Positions 1 to 39,817 of a DNA stretch of 39,817 bases are shown here, piece by piece. Positions within the stretch are counted from its first letter, which is position 1; every line of letters starts with the position of its first letter. Where the stretch lies: the sequence record MT808983.1; one strand, written 5' to 3'. Below the pieces are notes generated by a model. That model saw only the letters and a program-made list of their open reading frames with translations. It had not been told where the DNA came from and ran no database searches. This DNA comes from Escherichia phage TM1. The position numbers and the translations under genes are program-made.

Positions 1-179
1 TCACAGTTCAAGAACCTCAAGTCTCCCCATAGGCCCTCTTTTAGTCCAGACCAAAGGCCCTACCCCAGTCTATCATAAGGTGGGACCGATGGTCAAGACT
101 TCAGGTCAACGATAGGTTGAGGCTATGGCTGGAGGTCGGGACGATAGGTAGGGACTATGGGTCTGCCTCTAAGTCCCTA
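1..179. repeat. Left direct terminal repeat (DTR), identical to 39639-39817
   Basis: First 179 nt (tcacagttcaagaacctcaag...ctaagtcccta) recur at the extreme 3' end of the window; T7-like phages have terminally redundant linear genomes. Confidence 0.85.
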
Positions 180-215
180 TCTGTATAGTGTTATAGTATA
201 ACATTACGTCCTACA

Positions 216-299
216 CCTACAGTCTCACTAACCTACAGTCTCACTAACCTACAGTAACAACCATAAGACACTCACATCCTACAGTCATAGACCTACAGT
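216..299. repeat. Array of 5 copies of the octamer CCTACAGT just inside the left DTR
   Basis: CCTACAGT at 216-223, 232-239, 248-255, 278-285, 292-299; a matching array lies just inside the right DTR. T7 carries short-repeat arrays in and beside its terminal repeats. Confidence 0.7.
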
Positions 300-410
300 T
301 AATAGACACAAAGCTATAGACTTAAGGTCAAAGAAATGTTAGTCAAAGACTATATCCTCTTACACCATGAGGCCGACGATAGCTTAATCAATATTATTTC
401 AAATTACCTA

Positions 411-440
411 TTGACTATAGGTCTAGACTATGGCTTAATA
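411..440 (+). promoter_or_regulatory. Candidate host sigma70 early promoter (TTGACT, 17-18 nt spacer, TTAATA)
   Basis: TTGACT at 411-416 followed by an AT-rich -10-like hexamer; located in the non-coding early leader where T7 has promoters A1-A3. Judged by eye only. Confidence 0.3.
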
Positions 441-551
441 GCTTCCGTCAACACGACACGGCAACAACCGGATAGTGAAGACGCCGGGTCATCCCGGTTA
501 AGTAGACAGCCTGATAAGTCATACGAACAACAGGCAGATGACAGAAAGTAG

Positions 552-581
552 TTGACAAGATGTACCGACTTAAAGTAGTAT
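552..581 (+). promoter_or_regulatory. Candidate host sigma70 early promoter (TTGACA, 18 nt spacer, TAGTAT)
   Basis: Perfect -35 TTGACA at 552-557 and a -10-like TAGTAT at 576-581; the downstream context (cttaaagt) resembles T7 A-promoter regions. Confidence 0.35.
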
Positions 582-775
582 GTACCACATCAACACGAAA
601 CAACGGTGAGTCCCAACACTGAAACGGGATAGCACGGCGACGACAGCCAACGCAAATGCTCTTTAACAATCTGGATAAACTCTTAATGTGCGCCGATAGC
701 GACTAACTACAGGGTCTTTGAGTCTACATCTGAGGTCCCTGACTGATAGTCACTAACAACCTAAGAGGAATCATT

Positions 776-1057
776 ATGAGACTGAACAAAACTACGGCAG
801 AAGCCTTCCGCAAGGAGCTAGACTCAAGATTATTGCGTGGAGTGGAAGAAGAAGCAAAGCGCTATAAAGAGAATGGTCTAACGTTCAAACGATTTATGTG
901 GGATTGCTATCACGGGGTGGGTCATAAAAGGTCTCAGGAGATAATCACCAGCAACAATGCGGAAGTGCAAGTGATAGGAGGATATATGGCTAACGTGAAG
1001 GATTCTCACATAGAGACCATGCTTAAGAATGCACTTAAAGATGTAGCCTACGAGTGA
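776..1057 (+). CDS. Early protein of unknown function (93 aa), first early gene
   Basis: ATG at 776 preceded by AAGAGGAA; sits at the start of the early region upstream of the Ocr-like gene; no recognised motif. Confidence 0.6.
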   Translation: MRLNKTTAEAFRKELDSRLLRGVEEEAKRYKENGLTFKRFMWDCYHGVGHKRSQEIITSNNAEVQVIGGYMANVKDSHIETMLKNALKDVAYE

Positions 1058-1123
1058 TTAACTACAGGTCGTTAGCTTATAGCGGCCTGACTGATAGTCA
1101 CTAACAACTGAGAGGATATAACT

Positions 1124-1459
1124 ATGGAACGTAACGCTAACGCATACTATGACCTGCTGGCTGCAACTGTGAAAGCATTCAACGAGCGCATCCAGTACGA
1201 CCAACTGACTCAAGATGATGACTACTACGATGCACTGCATGAGGTTGTCGATGGAATGGTTCCGCACTATTACCACGAGATTTTCACGGTGATGGCCGCT
1301 GATGGTATAGACCACGAGTTCGAAGACTCTGGGCTGATGCCTGAGACCAAGGACGTAACGCGTATATTACAAGCTCGCATCTATGAGGCGCTTTACAACG
1401 ATGTGTCTAATAGCTCAGATGTGGTCTGGTTTGAGCCTACTGAGGAGGACTGCGAGTGA
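1124..1459 (+). CDS. ocr: Ocr-like anti-restriction DNA mimic (T7 gp0.3 homolog, 111 aa)
   Basis: Acidic protein containing [43 protein letters not shown], which closely matches the recalled core of T7 Ocr ([43 protein letters not shown]); SD GAGAGGA before the ATG. Confidence 0.85.
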   Translation: [111 protein letters not shown]

Positions 1460-1620
1460 TGGTAACTTATGGTCTCTGCCAGCACCACGTCACCAACGCC
1501 CGGCTTATGGTCAAGACCGGGCAGTTAAACCACGATGCGACTATGCGTTACCTGAAAGCGGTCTATGAGGGCCGCAAGCGAATACACGACAGCTTACACG
1601 CTGAGGACAAACCACAATGA
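1459..1620 (+). CDS. Small early ORF (53 aa), unknown function
   Basis: ATG overlaps the Ocr stop (TGATG); ends 1618-1620 overlapping the next start. Below the 60-aa cut-off of the supplied ORF track; supported only by tight gene packing. Confidence 0.35.
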   Translation: MVTYGLCQHHVTNARLMVKTGQLNHDATMRYLKAVYEGRKRIHDSLHAEDKPQ

Positions 1621-1808
1621 TAACTGAAGGTTCAATCATAGAATACAGATGTGACCACGGGTATATCCTGAAGGGTAAAGTAACGCAGGTATACACGTCT
1701 GTAACTGGTAAGCGATGCGTTGAGTTAACTAGCGGTGTGCGCTTAGGTCTGCATGAGTGTAGGCTGTTAAACGAGACGCAAGCGCCTACACGACAGCTTA
1801 CACACTGA
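1617..1808 (+). CDS. Small early protein (63 aa), unknown function
   Basis: ATG at 1617 preceded by the repeated leader ctgaggacaaaccacaATG; lies in the T7 gene 0.4-0.7 position. Confidence 0.5.
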   Translation: MITEGSIIEYRCDHGYILKGKVTQVYTSVTGKRCVELTSGVRLGLHECRLLNETQAPTRQLTH

Positions 1809-1820
1809 GGACAAGTAAAC

Positions 1821-1946
1821 ATGTACCAGATAACTTATAGCAGTGAACAGGCGTTCTACGATGGATGCTACGAGATGATGAAGCGCGGGGCTTGCTACGT
1901 GGCTAACCACCATAGCTTGACCATAACGCTGACAGGTGGATACTGA
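1821..1946 (+). CDS. Small early ORF (41 aa, MYQITYSSEQAFYDGCYEMMKRGACYVANHH...), unknown function
   Basis: ATG at 1821 preceded by a second copy of the repeated leader (ctgaggacaagtaaacATG); stop TGA at 1944-1946. Confidence 0.35.
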   Translation: MYQITYSSEQAFYDGCYEMMKRGACYVANHHSLTITLTGGY

Positions 1947-2103
1947 GTGATAAACGAGAGGTCATCTTTCTGATAGGTGGCCTCAAAGATTATCACTTAC
2001 ATTGATAGGGGTTAACTATGAGTATTGGACATTGGGTATGCCTAGCGCCAGTTATCTTGATGATAGGTTATGGGATATACGATTGTATTAAACGGAAATC
2101 ACT

Positions 2104-2301
2104 ATGAGTAGCGCACTATTGACAGCCATAGGCTATGGACTTATCGCCTACGTGCTGATGAGAGACATCAACAAGGCACGTAAAGTCTACAAATTCAACT
2201 ATGTACGTCTGGGTCGCTGGACTGTACGTCAACCTAACGGACGATTCATGCGTAACTTAGCGAACGTCTGGGATATAGCAACTCTTGGGAGCAAACTGTA
2301 A
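2104..2301 (+). CDS. Small early protein (65 aa) with hydrophobic N-terminus, unknown function
   Basis: ORF with N-terminal LLTAIGYGLIAYVLM hydrophobic stretch; weak RBS; stop overlaps the next start (TAATG). Confidence 0.45.
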   Translation: MSSALLTAIGYGLIAYVLMRDINKARKVYKFNYVRLGRWTVRQPNGRFMRNLANVWDIATLGSKL

Positions 2302-2561
2302 TGAAAACCGTATACACTCACAAATCATCAAGCCGTAGCCGCATGGAGCAAGCCCAGCGTGATATGTTCTTACATCGTCGAATGATGGCAGAGGGGCATG
2401 AGTCTGAGCTGATGTACCTGCTGTATGGTGGACGACCAATCACCGACGATGGTAAACTTCTGGTCTCAGGCTGGAAGGCGATATACCAACGGTCAACCAT
2501 CAAGCACACGACTCACGGTGACTTCAGCCATCTTCACGCTAACCAACTGATATGCAAGTAA
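2301..2561 (+). CDS. Early protein (86 aa), unknown function
   Basis: ATG overlaps the preceding stop; last early ORF before the RNAP gene. No kinase motifs, so it is not a T7 gp0.7 homolog. Confidence 0.5.
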   Translation: MKTVYTHKSSSRSRMEQAQRDMFLHRRMMAEGHESELMYLLYGGRPITDDGKLLVSGWKAIYQRSTIKHTTHGDFSHLHANQLICK

Positions 2562-2566
2562 TTCTG

Positions 2567-2590
2567 ACTTAACTATCACTATAGGACTCA
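2567..2590 (+). promoter_or_regulatory. Phage-RNAP promoter (ttaACTATCACTATAGGact) immediately upstream of the RNAP gene
   Basis: Matches the 11-member promoter family of this genome (core ACTATCACTATAGG); predicted +1 G at 2584. Confidence 0.7.
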
Positions 2591-2658
2591 AGGTCTAAGA
2601 CTCCAAGTGAAAGACCAAAGAGACTTTAAGTGAAAGACTAATAACAAGGACTTTAAGT

Positions 2659-5340
2659 ATGAGCGTCATCTCTATTGACAAACACGACTTCTCTGATGTG
2701 TCGAACGCCATTGAGCCGTTTAACCTGCTGGCTGACCACTACGGGCAAGACCTTGCAGTCAAGCAGCTTCAGCTTGAGCATGAGGCATACACTGAAGGCG
2801 AGCGACGTTTCATCAAGAACCTTGAGCGCCAGACCGAGCGCGGTGAGATGGCAGACAATCAGGTCGCCAAGCCTTTGATGCAGACTCTGGTCCCTAAGAT
2901 TGCGCAAGCCGTCAAGGAGTGGCATGAAGGCCCAGACGGGAAGCTGTCAACCTCTCGTCCTAGCGTAGCGTTCACCATGTTGAGCACTGAAGATAAGGCC
3001 GTCAAGGACCGCTCTCTGCGCATCTCCTGTGAGTCTGCTGCGGTTATCATACTGAAGGTCATCCTCTCCAAGCTGGTAAAGCCTGAAGGGATACCGATTA
3101 CACCTATGGCCTCCGCGATAGGTCGCACACTTGAAGATGAGATCCGCTTCGGTCGAATCAGAGACAAGGAGCAGGAGCACTTCAAGAAGGCGATAGCTGA
3201 TAACCTGAACAAGCGAGCTGGGGCATCCTATAAGAAAGCCTACATGCAAGCGGTTGAGACCTCCATGCTGGAGCAAGGTCAACTGGAAGATGCGTGGGGA
3301 ACTTGGAGTCCGACAGAGGCGGTACACGTTGGCATCAAGATGCTTGAGATTGTCATACAGTCTACACAACTGGTCGATATTAAGCGTTATGGTGCTGGCA
3401 ATGCAGCGGCTGATGTTGAGATGGTCCACCTGTCAGACTTCTGGGTCAAGAAGATGGCACAACGTGGGTTCAGCCTTGCGGGTATCGCACCAGTCTATCA
3501 GCCTTGCGTAGTTCCACCTAAGCCGTGGACGGGTGTCGTAGGCGGTGGGTACTGGGCCAAAGGTCGCAGACCGTTACCATTGATTCGCTTAGGGTCTAAG
3601 TCTGCGGTAGCACGTTACGAAGACGTGTACATGCCGGAAGTCTATGACGCTGTGAACATCATCCAGAATACACCTTGGAAAGTTAACAAGAAGGTTCTGG
3701 ACGTGGTGAACATGGTCGAGAAGCTGAACAACACGCCTATTGACGACATCCCTCAGATGGAGCCACTAAAGCCTGAGGACTATGCGGGTGAGACCGATGA
3801 AGAACTGAAGGCATGGAAGAAAGCTGCTGCTGGTATCTATCGACGCGAGAAGGCCAGACAGTCGCGCAGATTGTCACTGAGCTTTATCGTCAACCAAGCG
3901 AACAAGTTCTCTCAGTTCAAGGCCATCTGGTTTCCATACAACATGGATTGGCGAGGTCGTGTCTACGCTGTCCCGATGTTCAACCCTCAGGGTAACGACA
4001 TGCAGAAGGGTCTCCTGACTCTGGCAGTCGGCAAGCCTATTGGTGCTGACGGTTTCAAATGGCTGAAGGTACACGGTGCAAACTGCGCGGGTGTTGATAA
4101 AGTCACCTTCGAGGAGCGAATCAAGTGGGTGGAAGACAATCACGACAACATTATGGCTGCTGCTAAGGCACCGATGGATAGTATTGAGTGGTGGGGCAAG
4201 TTAGACTCTCCGTTCTGCTTCCTTGCGTTCTGCTTCGAGTATGCTGGCGTAATGCACCACGGCCTGTCTTACTCCTGCTCGCTGCCGATAGCGTTCGATG
4301 GGTCCTGCTCTGGTATTCAGCACTTCAGCGCGATGCTTCGTGACCACATCGGTGGACATGCAGTAAACCTAACTCCATCCGGCAAGGTTCAAGACATCTA
4401 CCGCATCGTGTCTGACCGCATCGCGGAGGAACTCAAAGTCCTGCTTGTTAACGGTACGGATAACGAGATGGTGACTCACGAGGACAAGAAAACTGGTGAG
4501 ATTACCGAACGTCTCAAGCTGGGGACACGAGAGCTGGCCCGTCAGTGGCTGACCTACGGTATGTCACGTAAGGTCACTAAGCGTTCGGTCATGACTCTGG
4601 CCTACGGGTCGAAAGAGTATGGCTTCGCAGACCAAGTATACGAGGACATCGTGATGCCAGCGATTGACTCAGGGTCTGGCGCTATGTTCACTGAACCAAG
4701 CCAAGCGTCTCGCTTCATGGCTAAGATGATTTGGGAAGCTGTGAGTGTGACCGTGGTTGCTGCGGTTGACGCGATGAAGTGGCTTCAAGGTGCTGCCAAG
4801 CTGCTGGCTGCTGAGGTGAAGGACAAGAAGACTGGAGAAATCCTGAAGCCTTGCCTTCCGGTACACTGGGTAACACCTGATGGTTTCCCGGTCTGGCAGG
4901 AATACCGCAAGAAGGATACAACCCGTCTGAACCTGATGTTCTTAGGGTCATTCAACCTTCAGCCTACAGTCAACAAAGGCACGAAGAAAGAGCTGGACAA
5001 GCACAAGCAGGAGTCAGGCATTAGCCCGAACTTCGTCCACTCACAAGATGGCAGCCACCTGCGGAAGACTGTAGTCCACACTCATCGCAAGTATGGCGTG
5101 ATGTCATTCGCAGTGATTCACGATAGCTTCGGGACCATCCCGGCTGACGCTGAGTATCTGTTCCGTGGTGTCCGTGAGACGATGGTAGAGACATACCGCG
5201 ACAACGATGTGCTGCTTGACTTCTACGAGCAGTTTGAATACCAGCTTCACGAGAGCCAGCGCGACAAGCTGCCTGAGCTTCCGAAGAAAGGTAAACTAAA
5301 TATCGAAGACATCTTGTCTTCAGACTTTGCATTCGCTTAA
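2659..5340 (+). CDS. gp1: Single-subunit DNA-directed RNA polymerase (T7 gp1 homolog, 893 aa)
   Basis: Collinear similarity to recalled T7 RNAP along the whole length (e.g. PYNMDWRGRVYAVPMFNPQGNDM, DGSCSGIQHFSAMLRD, HDSFGTIPADA, C-terminal SDFAFA). Confidence 0.97.
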   Translation: MSVISIDKHDFSDVSNAIEPFNLLADHYGQDLAVKQLQLEHEAYTEGERRFIKNLERQTERGEMADNQVAKPLMQTLVPKIAQAVKEWHEGPDGKLSTSRPSVAFTMLSTEDKAVKDRSLRISCESAAVIILKVILSKLVKPEGIPITPMASAIGRTLEDEIRFGRIRDKEQEHFKKAIADNLNKRAGASYKKAYMQAVETSMLEQGQLEDAWGTWSPTEAVHVGIKMLEIVIQSTQLVDIKRYGAGNAAADVEMVHLSDFWVKKMAQRGFSLAGIAPVYQPCVVPPKPWTGVVGGGYWAKGRRPLPLIRLGSKSAVARYEDVYMPEVYDAVNIIQNTPWKVNKKVLDVVNMVEKLNNTPIDDIPQMEPLKPEDYAGETDEELKAWKKAAAGIYRREKARQSRRLSLSFIVNQANKFSQFKAIWFPYNMDWRGRVYAVPMFNPQGNDMQKGLLTLAVGKPIGADGFKWLKVHGANCAGVDKVTFEERIKWVEDNHDNIMAAAKAPMDSIEWWGKLDSPFCFLAFCFEYAGVMHHGLSYSCSLPIAFDGSCSGIQHFSAMLRDHIGGHAVNLTPSGKVQDIYRIVSDRIAEELKVLLVNGTDNEMVTHEDKKTGEITERLKLGTRELARQWLTYGMSRKVTKRSVMTLAYGSKEYGFADQVYEDIVMPAIDSGSGAMFTEPSQASRFMAKMIWEAVSVTVVAAVDAMKWLQGAAKLLAAEVKDKKTGEILKPCLPVHWVTPDGFPVWQEYRKKDTTRLNLMFLGSFNLQPTVNKGTKKELDKHKQESGISPNFVHSQDGSHLRKTVVHTHRKYGVMSFAVIHDSFGTIPADAEYLFRGVRETMVETYRDNDVLLDFYEQFEYQLHESQRDKLPELPKKGKLNIEDILSSDFAFA

Positions 5341-5354
5341 CAGGAGAGAGAGTT

Positions 5355-5555
5355 ATGGAATTTGCACACAAGCAGACTGGCGTTAAGGGTGGTACTCAAA
5401 TCGTGACCGTAACAGAACACAACGGCAAGGGTCTGGTGAAGACCACTGTCATCCCTACCGAGATGTCAAAGCAGCTTAACGTCCAGTTCAAGTGGCTGGT
5501 TAAGCAGGTGGAGCAGACGCACGAGCAAGTCCTTAAAGAGGCGGCAACCAAATGA
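5355..5555 (+). CDS. Hypothetical protein (66 aa) between RNAP and gene 1.1
   Basis: ATG with SD AGGAGAGAG; T7 has no gene at this position. Confidence 0.5.
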   Translation: MEFAHKQTGVKGGTQIVTVTEHNGKGLVKTTVIPTEMSKQLNVQFKWLVKQVEQTHEQVLKEAATK

Positions 5556-5629
5556 CATACCTACAGTTACTGGCCCTGTGGCTGGGAGCACTAGCAGTAT
5601 TCACTCTAATCCAACGCAGAAGAGGTTAA
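5552..5629 (+). CDS. Possible small hydrophobic peptide (25 aa, MTYLQLLALWLGALAVFTLIQRRRG)
   Basis: ATG overlaps the upstream stop (ATGA); predicted single transmembrane helix followed by a basic tail; very short, so tentative. Confidence 0.2.
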   Translation: MTYLQLLALWLGALAVFTLIQRRRG

Positions 5630-5633
5630 CCAT

Positions 5634-6113
5634 ATGTTCGGTAAGTCAAAACTTAAGGCACAAATCAAAGAGTTGAGCATGAAGGTGGCATACTTGGAGC
5701 GAGTCGTAGAGGTCCGGGACAAGGACAACGAGCGGCTGAAGGTTAAACTTGCTGAATCAGAGCGTAAGCGCCTAACGCCACCAGCTGCTGTAACTGTCAA
5801 GCGTATGGTAGGCATCAAGTTCAAGGCTCTATTCAACGGTATGTACCAACCGGCTGAGTTCAAGACTGGGCCGGGTAACTGTGGGAAGAACGTTAAGCAC
5901 TTCACCATCTCGAAGACTGAACGCACACTGACCATCCACCAGCACCACATAGACGGGTCTCAGAAAGACTTTGAGTACCGACTGAGCGACATCGACGGTA
6001 GAATCCAGTATGACTATGAGCTGGTTAAGGTATACGGTGAGGAGGCTGAACAGGAACGTATAGTCCAAGCCTTCCGCAACAGACACGATTCGTACCCTAA
6101 ACTATCACTATAG
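5634..6113 (+). CDS. Hypothetical protein (159 aa) with coiled-coil-like N-terminus, accessory gene
   Basis: ATG with SD GAAGAGG; its stop codon TAG lies inside the following phage promoter; no recognised motif. Confidence 0.6.
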   Translation: MFGKSKLKAQIKELSMKVAYLERVVEVRDKDNERLKVKLAESERKRLTPPAAVTVKRMVGIKFKALFNGMYQPAEFKTGPGNCGKNVKHFTISKTERTLTIHQHHIDGSQKDFEYRLSDIDGRIQYDYELVKVYGEEAEQERIVQAFRNRHDSYPKLSL

Positions 6114-6119
6114 GATTAG
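6096..6119 (+). promoter_or_regulatory. Phage-RNAP promoter (taaACTATCACTATAGGatt), phi1.1 position
   Basis: Family consensus; predicted +1 G at 6113; overlaps the 3' end of the upstream ORF. Confidence 0.8.
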
Positions 6120-6160
6120 ACTCAAGGTCATGACTCAAAGTCGTGGCCTTCATGATTAAC
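6118..6160 (+). ncRNA. Conserved leader hairpin, candidate RNase III processing site (R1.1 position)
   Basis: agactcaaggtcatgactcaaagtcgtggccttcatgattaa; one of three copies of a conserved AGACTCAAGGTCAT...GGCCTTTATGATTA element. Confidence 0.5.
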
Positions 6161-6630: not shown

Positions 6631-7670
6631 TGACAACTATCAAGACTAACCCTCACCGCGCTGTAGACTACTCTGAGTCTGGCGTTAAGAAAGCGCTCGA
6701 AGCTGCCGGGTCACTGGAAGCTGAAGTGAAGTATGACGGTGTGCGGTTGAACCTTCCGGTGCTGCGAGAGGGTGAGACTTATTGGTTAAGCCGTGAGTCG
6801 AAACCTCTGCCTGCCTTGGAGTGGATGAACTCTGAGCTAGGTAATGCGTGGACCCAAGCTGACTGGCGATGGTTCCTGCGGCAAGCTGGATACGAAGGTG
6901 TGGGCCTGATGATCGATGGCGAGGTCATGATCAAAGGTGTGGACTTCAACACCTCCTCAGGTCTCATCCGAACGAAGTGGCTCAAGCCTAACAATGAGGA
7001 GGTCGCTGAATGCTATCCGGGCCGTGGCAAGAAGGTCCCGTTCTTGGTCTCCCGGTCACGACTTCAGGTTGTGGTATATGGCGTTGTCGATATGACAACC
7101 ATAGCAGACCCGAAAGCCGAAGGTCCTATCCATAGCGTCACACGCCTGAAGGCCGAAGCCATCGTCCCTCTCCTCCAGAAATACTTCCCGGAAATCGACT
7201 GGGTATTATCTGAGAGTCATACAGTGTATGACCTTGAGTCGCTCAACTCCCTGTACGAAGAGAAGCGTCTGGAAGGACACGAGGGTCTGGTAGTCAAGGA
7301 CCCACTTGGTAAATACAAGCGTGGCAAGAAGTCAGGCATGTGGAAAATGAAGCCTGAGGAGACAATCGACGGGACAGTGTGTGGCCTCGTGTGGGGGACT
7401 CCGGGTAAGGCTAACGAAGGTAAGGTGATTGGCTTTGAGGTGCTGCTTGAGGATGGCATGGTGGTTAATGCTTGTGGTCTGACTGAAGAACAGAAGGATG
7501 AGTTTACGGAAGCCTGTAACACTGATACATATATTCTCGGTGGAATCAATCCATACGAAGGCTGGCAGTGTGAAGTCCTTTTCATGGAGCGGTTCCCTGA
7601 TGGCTCACTCCGTCACCCTAGCTTCAAGTGCTGGCGAGGGACGGAAGACAACCCGACCGTTAAGAGTTAA
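6630..7670 (+). CDS. gp1.3: ATP-dependent DNA ligase (T7 gp1.3 homolog)
   Basis: MTTIKTNPHRAV...EVKYDGVR (KxDG adenylation motif) ...GHEGLVVKDP...KRGKKSGMWKMKPE...SLRHPSF, collinear with T7 ligase; start taken at ATG 6630 (T7-like MxxIKTNP) rather than the upstream alternative start in the ORF track. Confidence 0.92.
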   Translation: MTTIKTNPHRAVDYSESGVKKALEAAGSLEAEVKYDGVRLNLPVLREGETYWLSRESKPLPALEWMNSELGNAWTQADWRWFLRQAGYEGVGLMIDGEVMIKGVDFNTSSGLIRTKWLKPNNEEVAECYPGRGKKVPFLVSRSRLQVVVYGVVDMTTIADPKAEGPIHSVTRLKAEAIVPLLQKYFPEIDWVLSESHTVYDLESLNSLYEEKRLEGHEGLVVKDPLGKYKRGKKSGMWKMKPEETIDGTVCGLVWGTPGKANEGKVIGFEVLLEDGMVVNACGLTEEQKDEFTEACNTDTYILGGINPYEGWQCEVLFMERFPDGSLRHPSFKCWRGTEDNPTVKS

Positions 7671-7678
7671 CTAAACGT

Positions 7679-7720
7679 CAACCCAGTGGTCTTCGGACTG
7701 CTGGGTTTCTTTGCTTTATG
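7679..7720 (+). terminator. Rho-independent terminator, analog of T7 early terminator TE
   Basis: GC-rich hairpin (aacccagtggtcttcggactgctgggtt) followed by a T-rich tract tctttgcttt directly after ligase, where T7 has TE. Confidence 0.7.
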
Positions 7721-11413: not shown

Positions 11414-11431
11414 ACTATCACCTTAGGGATG
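11408..11431 (+). promoter_or_regulatory. Phage-RNAP promoter variant (taaACTATCACcTtAGGGat)
   Basis: Two substitutions in the -4/-3 region; upstream of the tRNA-like element and the primase-helicase gene; probably weaker. Confidence 0.45.
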
Positions 11432-11476: not shown

Positions 11477-11555
11477 GTCTCCATAGCTCAAACGGTAGAG
11501 CGGCGGGTCATGATGGCCTATTGCGATTAGGGTTCGAATCCCCGTGGAGACGCCA
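11477..11555 (+). tRNA. tRNA-like element (possible degenerate tRNA, candidate anticodon CAT; anticodon arm ambiguous)
   Basis: Perfect 7-bp acceptor stem (gtctcca/tggagac), T8, D-arm gctc-aaacggta-gagc with GG, T-loop GGTTCGAATCC, discriminator G and encoded CCA; but 26 nt between the D- and T-arms with imperfect anticodon stem pairing. Confidence 0.4.
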
Positions 11556-17762: not shown

Positions 17763-17786
17763 ACTAAACTATCACTATAGGGACTT
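17763..17786 (+). promoter_or_regulatory. Phage-RNAP promoter (taaACTATCACTATAGGGac), phi6.5 position
   Basis: Family consensus; predicted +1 G at 17780. Confidence 0.8.
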
Positions 17787-26111: not shown

Positions 26112-26135
26112 ACCTTAACTATCACTATAGGGACT
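26112..26135 (+). promoter_or_regulatory. Phage-RNAP promoter (ttaACTATCACTATAGGGac), phi13 position
   Basis: Family consensus; predicted +1 G at 26129. Confidence 0.8.
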
Positions 26136-39638: not shown

Positions 39639-39817
39639 TCACAGTTCAAGAACCTCAAGTCTCCCCATAGGCCCTCTTTTAGTCCAGACCAAAGGCCCTA
39701 CCCCAGTCTATCATAAGGTGGGACCGATGGTCAAGACTTCAGGTCAACGATAGGTTGAGGCTATGGCTGGAGGTCGGGACGATAGGTAGGGACTATGGGT
39801 CTGCCTCTAAGTCCCTA
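39639..39817. repeat. Right direct terminal repeat, identical to 1-179
   Basis: Sequence tcacagttcaag...ctaagtcccta matches the first 179 nt of the window. Confidence 0.85.

Follow-up and report, generated by a model that had tools for sequence, protein, structure and literature searches.

A predicted promoter for the phage's own RNA polymerase and a conserved repeat-containing leader directly upstream of gene 1 in Escherichia phage TM1

We analyzed a window of 39,817 bp, the whole stretch of DNA deposited for Escherichia phage TM1 (MT808983.1), which represents a complete genome of the T7 group, genus Kayfunavirus (K1F-like). An identical array of a 13-nt repeat was found at both of its ends (positions 133 to 163 and 39771 to 39801), indicating terminal repeats. 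Gene 1 encodes a single-subunit RNA polymerase (RNAP), and the specificity loop of this enzyme (RLNLMFLGSFNLQ) shows no differences from the K1F loop. Between the stop codon (2561) of an 86-aa homolog of gene 0.38 and the start of gene 1 there is a gap of 97 nt, which holds the predicted phage promoter phi1. The region around this promoter is 93 to 96% identical to Kayfunavirus phages, among them ST31, pO91, and K1F. The main features of the locus are the following.

Positions 2567 to 2589, plus strand: predicted phage RNAP promoter phi1 (-17 to +6, ACTTAACTATCACTATAGGACTC), with +1 at G2584; the leftmost phage promoter, assigned by core match, matrix, and relatives.
Positions 2584 to 2658, plus strand: 75-nt 5' leader of the phi1 transcript, 64 to 66% A+T, with an A-rich sense strand and no ORF.
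Positions 2659 to 5340, plus strand: gene 1, single-subunit RNA polymerase of 893 aa, 99% identical to K1F RNAP.
Positions 6096 to 6160, plus strand: the next phage promoter (core at 6101 to 6114) and an R1.1-like hairpin; it aligns to the leader of T7 phi1.1A with z = 9.

In the early region (window positions 1 to 2560), a homolog of gene 0.7 (kinase/host shut-off) is absent before gene 1, which is preceded by the 86-aa gp0.38 homolog. In CR8, a 0.7-like gene is retained and a gene-1 promoter is present too. The left end harbors two sets of repeats, ACCTACAGTCTCACTA in 2.6 copies (215 to 255) and CCTACAGTAATAGA in 2.1 copies (278 to 307), whose reverse complement includes ACTGTAGG, a sequence resembling the promoter core. 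A similar repeat, (acctacagtcaac)3, is annotated in CR8. Further along, the 23-nt block CCTGACTGATAGTCACTAACAAC occurs in two copies on the plus strand (738 to 760 and 1086 to 1108), each located just 5' of the RBS of an early gene (at 776 and 1124) and after a small hairpin of the ACAGG..CCTGA type. These hairpins resemble T7 RNase III sites such as R1, and the two blocks are probably early-mRNA processing sites.

On the other side of gene 1, the interval from 5355 to 6113 harbors two ORFs of 66 and 159 aa, the latter ending inside the promoter at 6101. In close relatives, the next promoter follows the end of gene 1 after about 300, 550, 760, or 1015 nt, and this interval looks like a hotspot of gene gain and loss. 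Far downstream, both ARAGORN and Rfam (36.5 bits) identified a tRNA-Met-like gene with anticodon CAT (11477 to 11555, plus strand). It lies just 3' of a variant promoter (11414 to 11427), in the gap before the primase/helicase gene, at the place occupied by gene 3.8 in T7. In some Kayfunavirus records, the same tRNA is labeled tRNA-OTHER, tRNA-Thr, or tRNA-Pseudo, and the segment is covered over most of its length in only 32 of 182 matching records. We know of no tRNA in classical T7-group phages.

The original prediction had placed a promoter, with +1 near 2584, 75 nt before the RNAP start, and we found all of its coordinates to be right: the promoter core ACTATCACTATAGG occupies positions 2572 to 2585, +1 is the first G of the GG (2584), and the ATG is at 2659. 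It had also described the site as a good match to the phage promoter family, which our analysis bore out. Indeed, phi1 carries the 14-mer core without any mismatch. This core has eight exact copies in the genome, all of them on the plus strand, and is shared by seven other promoters. When up to three mismatches were allowed, 15 matches were found, compared to a mean of 3.2 in shuffled sequences, and none of 100 shuffles reached 15. With a position matrix trained on ten other promoters, phi1 being left out, and applied to both strands, phi1 scored 31.3 bits, the ten other promoters 33 to 39 bits, and the best nonpromoter site 15.9 bits. phi1 therefore has the lowest score of the eleven promoters. 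The eleven aligned sites have CT(A/T)AACTATCACTATAGG in common, all promoters of the matrix set are located on the plus strand, and the matrix scan of the TM1 genome returned no phiOL-like site.

An experimental link is provided by work on a T7 chimera, in which T7 RNAP equipped with the K1F loop gave 17-fold activation of a promoter carrying the K1F consensus at -12 to -7 (PMC3458549). This pair of loop and promoter was thereby validated, and the TM1 loop is the K1F loop. A literature search on K1F-like phages returned no transcript-start, transcriptomic, or in vitro transcription results. On the basis of the sequence comparisons, we consider it very likely that phi1 works as a promoter for the RNAP of the phage itself.

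A comparison with the gene-1 leaders of related phages had been proposed as a check, and it came out in favor of the promoter. Our comparison set comprised 80 loci from IMG/VR encoding RNAP relatives. In all 21 loci with an RNAP at least 79% identical, a promoter of the phage's own type precedes gene 1 by no more than about 120 nt. By contrast, none of the 52 loci with an RNAP 58 to 63% identical (T7-, T3-, and K11-like) had such a promoter in this interval; these loci harbor a T7 R1-type hairpin there.

The gene-1 site differs between lineages. It reads TAACTATCACTATAGG in TM1, TTAAACCCTCACTATAGG in the relatives L018 and L038 (promoter type ACCCT), and AAGGAAGGTACACTATAGG in CR8 (L016, genus Caroctavirus; promoter type GGTA). 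Elsewhere in these genomes, L018 and L038 have other TTAAACCCTCACTATAGG promoters 3.4 and 5.2 to 5.3 kb downstream of the gene-1 start, and three downstream promoters of CR8 are also AAGGAAGGTACACTATAGG. The specificity loop is RLNLMFLGSFNLQ (N..N..Q) in TM1 and RLDLMFLGTFRLQ (D..R..Q, with a T3-like Asp) in L018 and L038, and it is divergent in CR8. Each of the three promoter classes, distinguished by the bases at -12 to -8, is paired with a loop type of its own, and in every class the gene-1 site conforms. Because this site was retuned together with the loop each time, the data argue against a nonfunctional copy.

The type-B relatives (L012 to L014, L020, L021, IMM-002, and Pisces) have the gene-1 promoter CACTAAAGG, with an A at -2, and the other promoters of the same phages read CACTATAGG. 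In type B, moreover, the core sequence TATCACTAAAG and the leader sequence CTTTAGTGATA (2407 to 2417 and 2461 to 2471 in L012) form a perfect 11-bp inverted repeat, which was equaled in 1 of 500 shuffles and is absent from the TM1 type. It may represent a hairpin of the read-through RNA or a regulatory site. In view of its lowest matrix score and of the -2 A in type-B relatives, phi1 may be a weak promoter. The low score and the -2 variant in one lineage would also suit a more extreme reading, in which phi1 is a promoter copy left behind by recombination that fires very weakly or not at all, and the leader is kept only for its RBS. We consider this highly improbable, since a relic is not expected to be retuned three times with polymerase specificity, and conservation spans the whole 73-nt leader, beyond the RBS.

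The leader of the presumptive phi1 transcript has a GC content of 0.36 (80-nt windows) and harbors the following repeats.

Positions 2585 to 2602, plus strand: repeat unit 1, GACTCAAGGTCTAAGACT.
Positions 2599 to 2616, plus strand: repeat unit 2, GACTCCAAGTGAAAGACC.
Positions 2622 to 2639, plus strand: repeat unit 3, GACTTTAAGTGAAAGACT.
Positions 2647 to 2661, plus strand: RBS block AGGACTTTAAGTATG, with repeat unit 4, GACTTTAAGT (2649 to 2658), the Shine-Dalgarno sequence AAGGA (2646 to 2650), and the start codon.

Units 1 and 2 together resemble the first 23 nt after the promoter at 6101 (GACTCAAGGTCATGACTCAAAGT). The 17-mers GACTCCAAGTGAAAGAC (2599 to 2615) and GACTTTAAGTGAAAGAC (2622 to 2638) differ at 2 of 17 positions, where 0.15 matches would be expected. 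A repeat search recovered three families with 71 to 86% identity and start-to-start spacings of 14, 23, and 50. The motif GACTNNARGT has 22 plus-strand copies in the genome, four of which fall within 2585 to 2658 and two after the 6101 promoter. The leader had been predicted to hold degenerate tandem repeats. The repeats are real and they are degenerate, but they do not constitute a tandem array: Tandem Repeats Finder detected no array in 2585 to 2658 even at a score of 30, and the spacing is irregular. What the leader holds is a cluster of direct repeats built on one short motif.

The repeats are also found in relatives. Leaders of type A, type B, and CR8 all carry four or five GACTYNAAGT-like units; the middles of these leaders differ, and their mutual alignments are significant (0 of 1,000 shuffles). 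Among 20 type-A genomes, the diversity (pi) of the leader was 0.031, compared to 0.21 and 0.26 at the third positions of gene 1 and gene 0.38, respectively, and 0.05 to 0.13 at first and second positions. This very low diversity supports a functional leader, and the comparison indicates that the repeats are under strong selection at the level of the sequence. The constraint on the leader is at the sequence level, without structural covariation.

The proposal that the repeats form RNA structure was not upheld for the phi1 transcript. At -12.7 kcal/mol (z = +0.43), the predicted fold of 2584 to 2670 was equaled or surpassed in stability by 134 of 200 shuffles. A different exposure of the RBS in the two types of transcript was considered and discarded, the unpaired probability of 2644 to 2664 being 0.49 to 0.56 in the read-through RNA versus 0.51 in the phi1 transcript. 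At gathering thresholds, Rfam returned nothing at the leader, its sole match being the tRNA elsewhere. The T7 RNAP pause/termination signal ATCTGTT has four matches in the genome, fewer than expected by chance, and none of them is near the leader. Finally, our scan revealed no sigma-70 promoter within the leader that would correspond to the T7 C promoter.

In T7, the RNase III site R1 occupies the same position, and the TM1 leader might be its equivalent, freeing the gene-1 mRNA from the early polycistronic transcript with the repeats serving as hairpin arms. One predicted structure is relevant here.

Positions 2573 to 2636, plus strand: imperfect hairpin of the read-through (host-RNAP) RNA only, low confidence; -17.4 kcal/mol, z = -1.6, 11 of 200 shuffles as stable.

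This 64-nt hairpin with several internal loops can form in the read-through RNA only, because its 5' arm is the promoter core. The perfect type-B inverted repeat likewise links the promoter core to the leader, and the -2 A is specific to that promoter, which would be consistent with processing. However, the longest perfect inverted repeat in TM1 is not significant, the helix is interrupted by five internal loops, and the pairing is not the same in type A, type B, and CR8. Rfam is without a match here. Furthermore, T7 R1 and the T7 gene-1 leader have the same placement as the TM1 element, after the last early gene and before gene 1, but no sequence similarity to it; a homology to either was rejected (z = 0). 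We regard an RNase III site as unlikely.

The repeats might instead act in translation of the mRNA, either as ACUUUAAG modules similar to the "epsilon" enhancer of T7 gene 10 or as an operator for a phage protein, and thereby set the yield of polymerase per transcript. The epsilon element, UUAACUUUA, is said to be complementary to positions 458 to 466 of 16S rRNA. Consistent with such a role, one unit is directly adjacent to the start codon, T7 gene 1.1 makes use of the same block, and the leader is unstructured and highly conserved. In addition, CTTTAAG is located just 5' of the Shine-Dalgarno sequence in T7 genes 9, 10, and 17, and similar words are present in several TM1 leaders. On the other hand, units 40 to 70 nt before the start codon are far away for ribosome contact, the complementarity to 16S rRNA amounts to just 6 to 7 nt or so (by eye), the RBS is equally accessible in both transcript types, and no binding protein is known. 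We propose a role in translation only tentatively.

The closest parallel to the leader that we describe here is found behind gene 1 of T7. In T7, the leader of gene 1.1 (phi1.1B, +1 at 5923) closes with the RBS and start of that gene, AGGACTTTAAGTATG, a sequence identical to TM1 positions 2647 to 2661. When viral contigs were scanned for AGGACTTTAAGTATG, most of the 80 matches listed were in unrelated contexts, and the T7-group contigs were the informative ones. Among the matches listed, the copies in T7-group contigs precede either gene 1 (in Kayfunavirus) or gene 1.1 (in T7-like phages) and no other gene, and each copy is located 75 to 85 nt after a phage promoter. With four CTT(T)AAG units within 84 nt, the phi1.1B leader is where such units are most densely clustered in T7; a second cluster of this type is located at phi6.5. 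The only comparable cluster in TM1 is the gene-1 leader. The phi1 cassette and T7 phi1.1B have in common a promoter, an A+T-rich leader of 75 to 85 nt, the densest cluster of CTT(T)AAG-type units, and the AGGACTTTAAGTATG end.

Full-length homology between the two leaders was at first suggested by a z score of 7.9 against mononucleotide shuffles. With a stricter local alignment and dinucleotide shuffles, the signal turned out to reside mostly in the 15-nt RBS block; without this block, 52 of 1,000 shuffles scored as well, and the similarity to phi1.1B was no better than that to the phi2.5 leader. Because the alignment without the RBS block is marginal, we lowered the claim of homology to one of shared architecture and an identical RBS. 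The two elements also differ in placement, T7 phi1.1B being located behind gene 1, where it drives gene 1.1, and the TM1 cassette before gene 1. The TM1 promoter at 6101 corresponds to T7 phi1.1A/R1.1 and is single, whereas T7 has a tandem pair.

Replication of T7 starts at phi1.1A/phi1.1B (PMC8373140), and given the shared architecture, an origin role of the TM1 element is a live hypothesis. The promoter and its A+T-rich repeat leader might be mainly, or also, a replication origin, the counterpart of the T7 primary origin. Transcripts made by the phage RNAP from this promoter would then either prime synthesis by the phage DNA polymerase or open the DNA to it. Such a role would be compatible with autoregulation. 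T7 origins reportedly consist of a promoter and an A+T-rich segment.

Several observations are in agreement with an origin. The T7 phi1.1B leader shares with that of TM1 the RBS block, the CTT(T)AAG-type units, a similar length (75 nt in TM1 versus 84 nt), and a high A+T content (0.66 versus 0.73). In each genome this is the densest cluster of such units, and phi6.5, the site of the second T7 cluster, is a secondary origin of T7 replication (PMC8373140). The single promoter after gene 1 in TM1, where T7 has two, points in the same direction, and a constraint on sequence without structural covariation fits a DNA element. There is also one primase-type site, 5'-TGGTC-3', on the bottom strand at 2611 to 2615, which conforms to the type (G/T)2GTC (PMC12839067), and T7 has GGGTC at a similar distance from +1. 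However, this site is not kept in the CR8 leader, and by our estimate about 0.3 such sites per 75 nt are expected by chance. Moreover, the similarity outside the RBS block is marginal, and the A+T content of the TM1 leader (66%) is below that of T7 phi1.1B (73%) and not distinct from that of other A+T-rich TM1 leaders (0.66 at 17780 and 0.67 at 26130). We consider an origin role possible but far from assured.

In its boldest form, the parallel would mean that phi1 and its repeat leader are the primary replication origin of Kayfunavirus and Caroctavirus, derived from a T7 phi1.1B cassette that moved across gene 1, and that the GACTYNAAGT units are conserved determinants of the origin, in T7 too. 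We put this forward as a speculative conjecture, and a rather doubtful one. In a T7-like contig (L081/L142, IMGVR_UViG_651703085_000001), the phi1.1B leader shows an expanded run of the same units, located 110 nt before gene 1.1, with the sequence CCTTAAGAC ACTTTAAGAC CCTTAAGGC ACTCTAAGAC CCTTGAG. Thus, unit number is variable in the T7 origin region too.

Turning to the expression of gene 1 itself, two further features frame the transcripts that would cover it.

Positions 552 to 581, plus strand: the best sigma-70-like early promoter, TTGACA-18-TAGTAT, from a consensus scan in which such sites are no commoner than in shuffled sequences.
Positions about 7680 to 7717, plus strand: intrinsic terminator after the ligase gene, at the T7 TE position, from the terminator scan.

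We propose that host RNAP starts at left-end early promoters and reads into gene 1, which would give rise to the first polymerase molecules. The sigma-70-like site at 552 to 581 is the presumed source of these first transcripts, and the scan found no terminator-like site on the plus strand before gene 1. The newly made RNAP would start at G2584 and produce a transcript consisting of a 75-nt A/U-rich, essentially unstructured leader and gene 1, in which AAGGA, a good Shine-Dalgarno sequence, precedes the ATG by 8 nt. Because the scan detected no terminator-like site between +1 and the ATG (2584 to 2659) and the RBS is inside the transcript, gene 1 would be self-transcribed if phi1 fires. Since phi1 very probably works, the RNAP gene can very probably be transcribed by its own enzyme. 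The first stem-and-T-run site listed downstream of phi1 is the 7680 terminator; a weaker site at 7187 is followed by TATTATCTGA and has no T-run.

Gene 1 would thus be an early gene and a phage-transcribed gene at the same time, and positive feedback would be a consequence of this layout. The original prediction of positive autoregulation from a phage promoter follows on the same condition, namely that phi1 fires. Its premise that T7 gene 1 is transcribed by host RNAP only is a simplification, as T7 phiOL (nt 405) is also located upstream of gene 1. T7 is the textbook case of a polymerase gene that is early and read by the host enzyme.

The promoter, the leader, and the RBS appear to form one conserved cassette with the architecture of the T7 phi1.1B promoter and gene-1.1 leader, placed before gene 1 instead of after it. 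The repeats would be copies of the GACTYNAAGT/CTT(T)AAG module typical of this cassette. Our leading guess for their role is translation initiation or a leader function of the mRNA; as a possible second role, they might belong to a promoter-dependent replication origin of the T7 kind and supply its A+T-rich half. Overall, we assign a probability of roughly 75% to this account of a genuine K1F-type promoter, host-primed feedback, and a conserved cassette.

The feature is already known in kind and is annotated in relatives. K1F (DQ111067) has a nearly identical promoter and leader, the same element as in TM1. In CR44b (HG818823, 1814 to 1836) and CR8 (HG818824, 3356 to 3378), the homologous site is annotated as a "predicted promoter" directly before gene 1. 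For vB_EcoA-Sparklingdew, a 2026 Kayfunavirus paper lists CTWAACTATCACTATAGG at the 3' end of the gene that precedes the one for RNAP (PMC13298934). Autoregulation, the leader repeats, and the likeness to T7 phi1.1B are not discussed in the CR44b and CR8 records or in the passages of the Sparklingdew paper available to us (PMC13298934).

Within the Autographiviridae, TM1 shares with LUZ100 and phiA318 a polymerase gene that is immediately preceded by a promoter of the cognate type. For LUZ100, ONT-cappable-seq mapped the start site of phi1, the promoter before the RNAP gene, and the study proposed a positive feedback loop (PMC10134795). Similarly, autoregulation was suggested for phi-A8, which precedes the RNAP gene of Vibrio phage phiA318 (PMC4099482). 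Both phages are distant (the LUZ100 RNAP is 37% identical), and the experimentally mapped LUZ100 promoter is tied to a proposed lysogeny switch; TM1 is strictly T7-like. The layout also recalls the engineered T7 "autogene", as in both cases the polymerase gene is under its own promoter, although the arrangement in TM1 is natural and would be host-primed. The autogene, T7 gene 1 under a T7 promoter, is said to be self-amplifying and to need tight repression. To these precedents the present analysis adds the evidence from co-variation, the strong constraint on the leader, and the parallel with phi1.1B and its origin.

From this parallel, a concrete candidate emerges for the replication origin of the K1F-like group. 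If the conjecture is true, one 100-bp element would start DNA replication and also self-amplify the polymerase that fires it. The parallel also draws attention to the short conserved units in the origin leader of T7 itself, for which we know of no defined role.

The self-transcription loop, for its part, should alter the timing and the amount of polymerase in K1F-like phages, which are widely used as therapy candidates. It should lessen their dependence on continued host transcription and may affect the speed of genome entry. Synthetic biology would find in it an "autogene" that is natural and evolutionarily stable and whose leader and RBS are compact and highly conserved.
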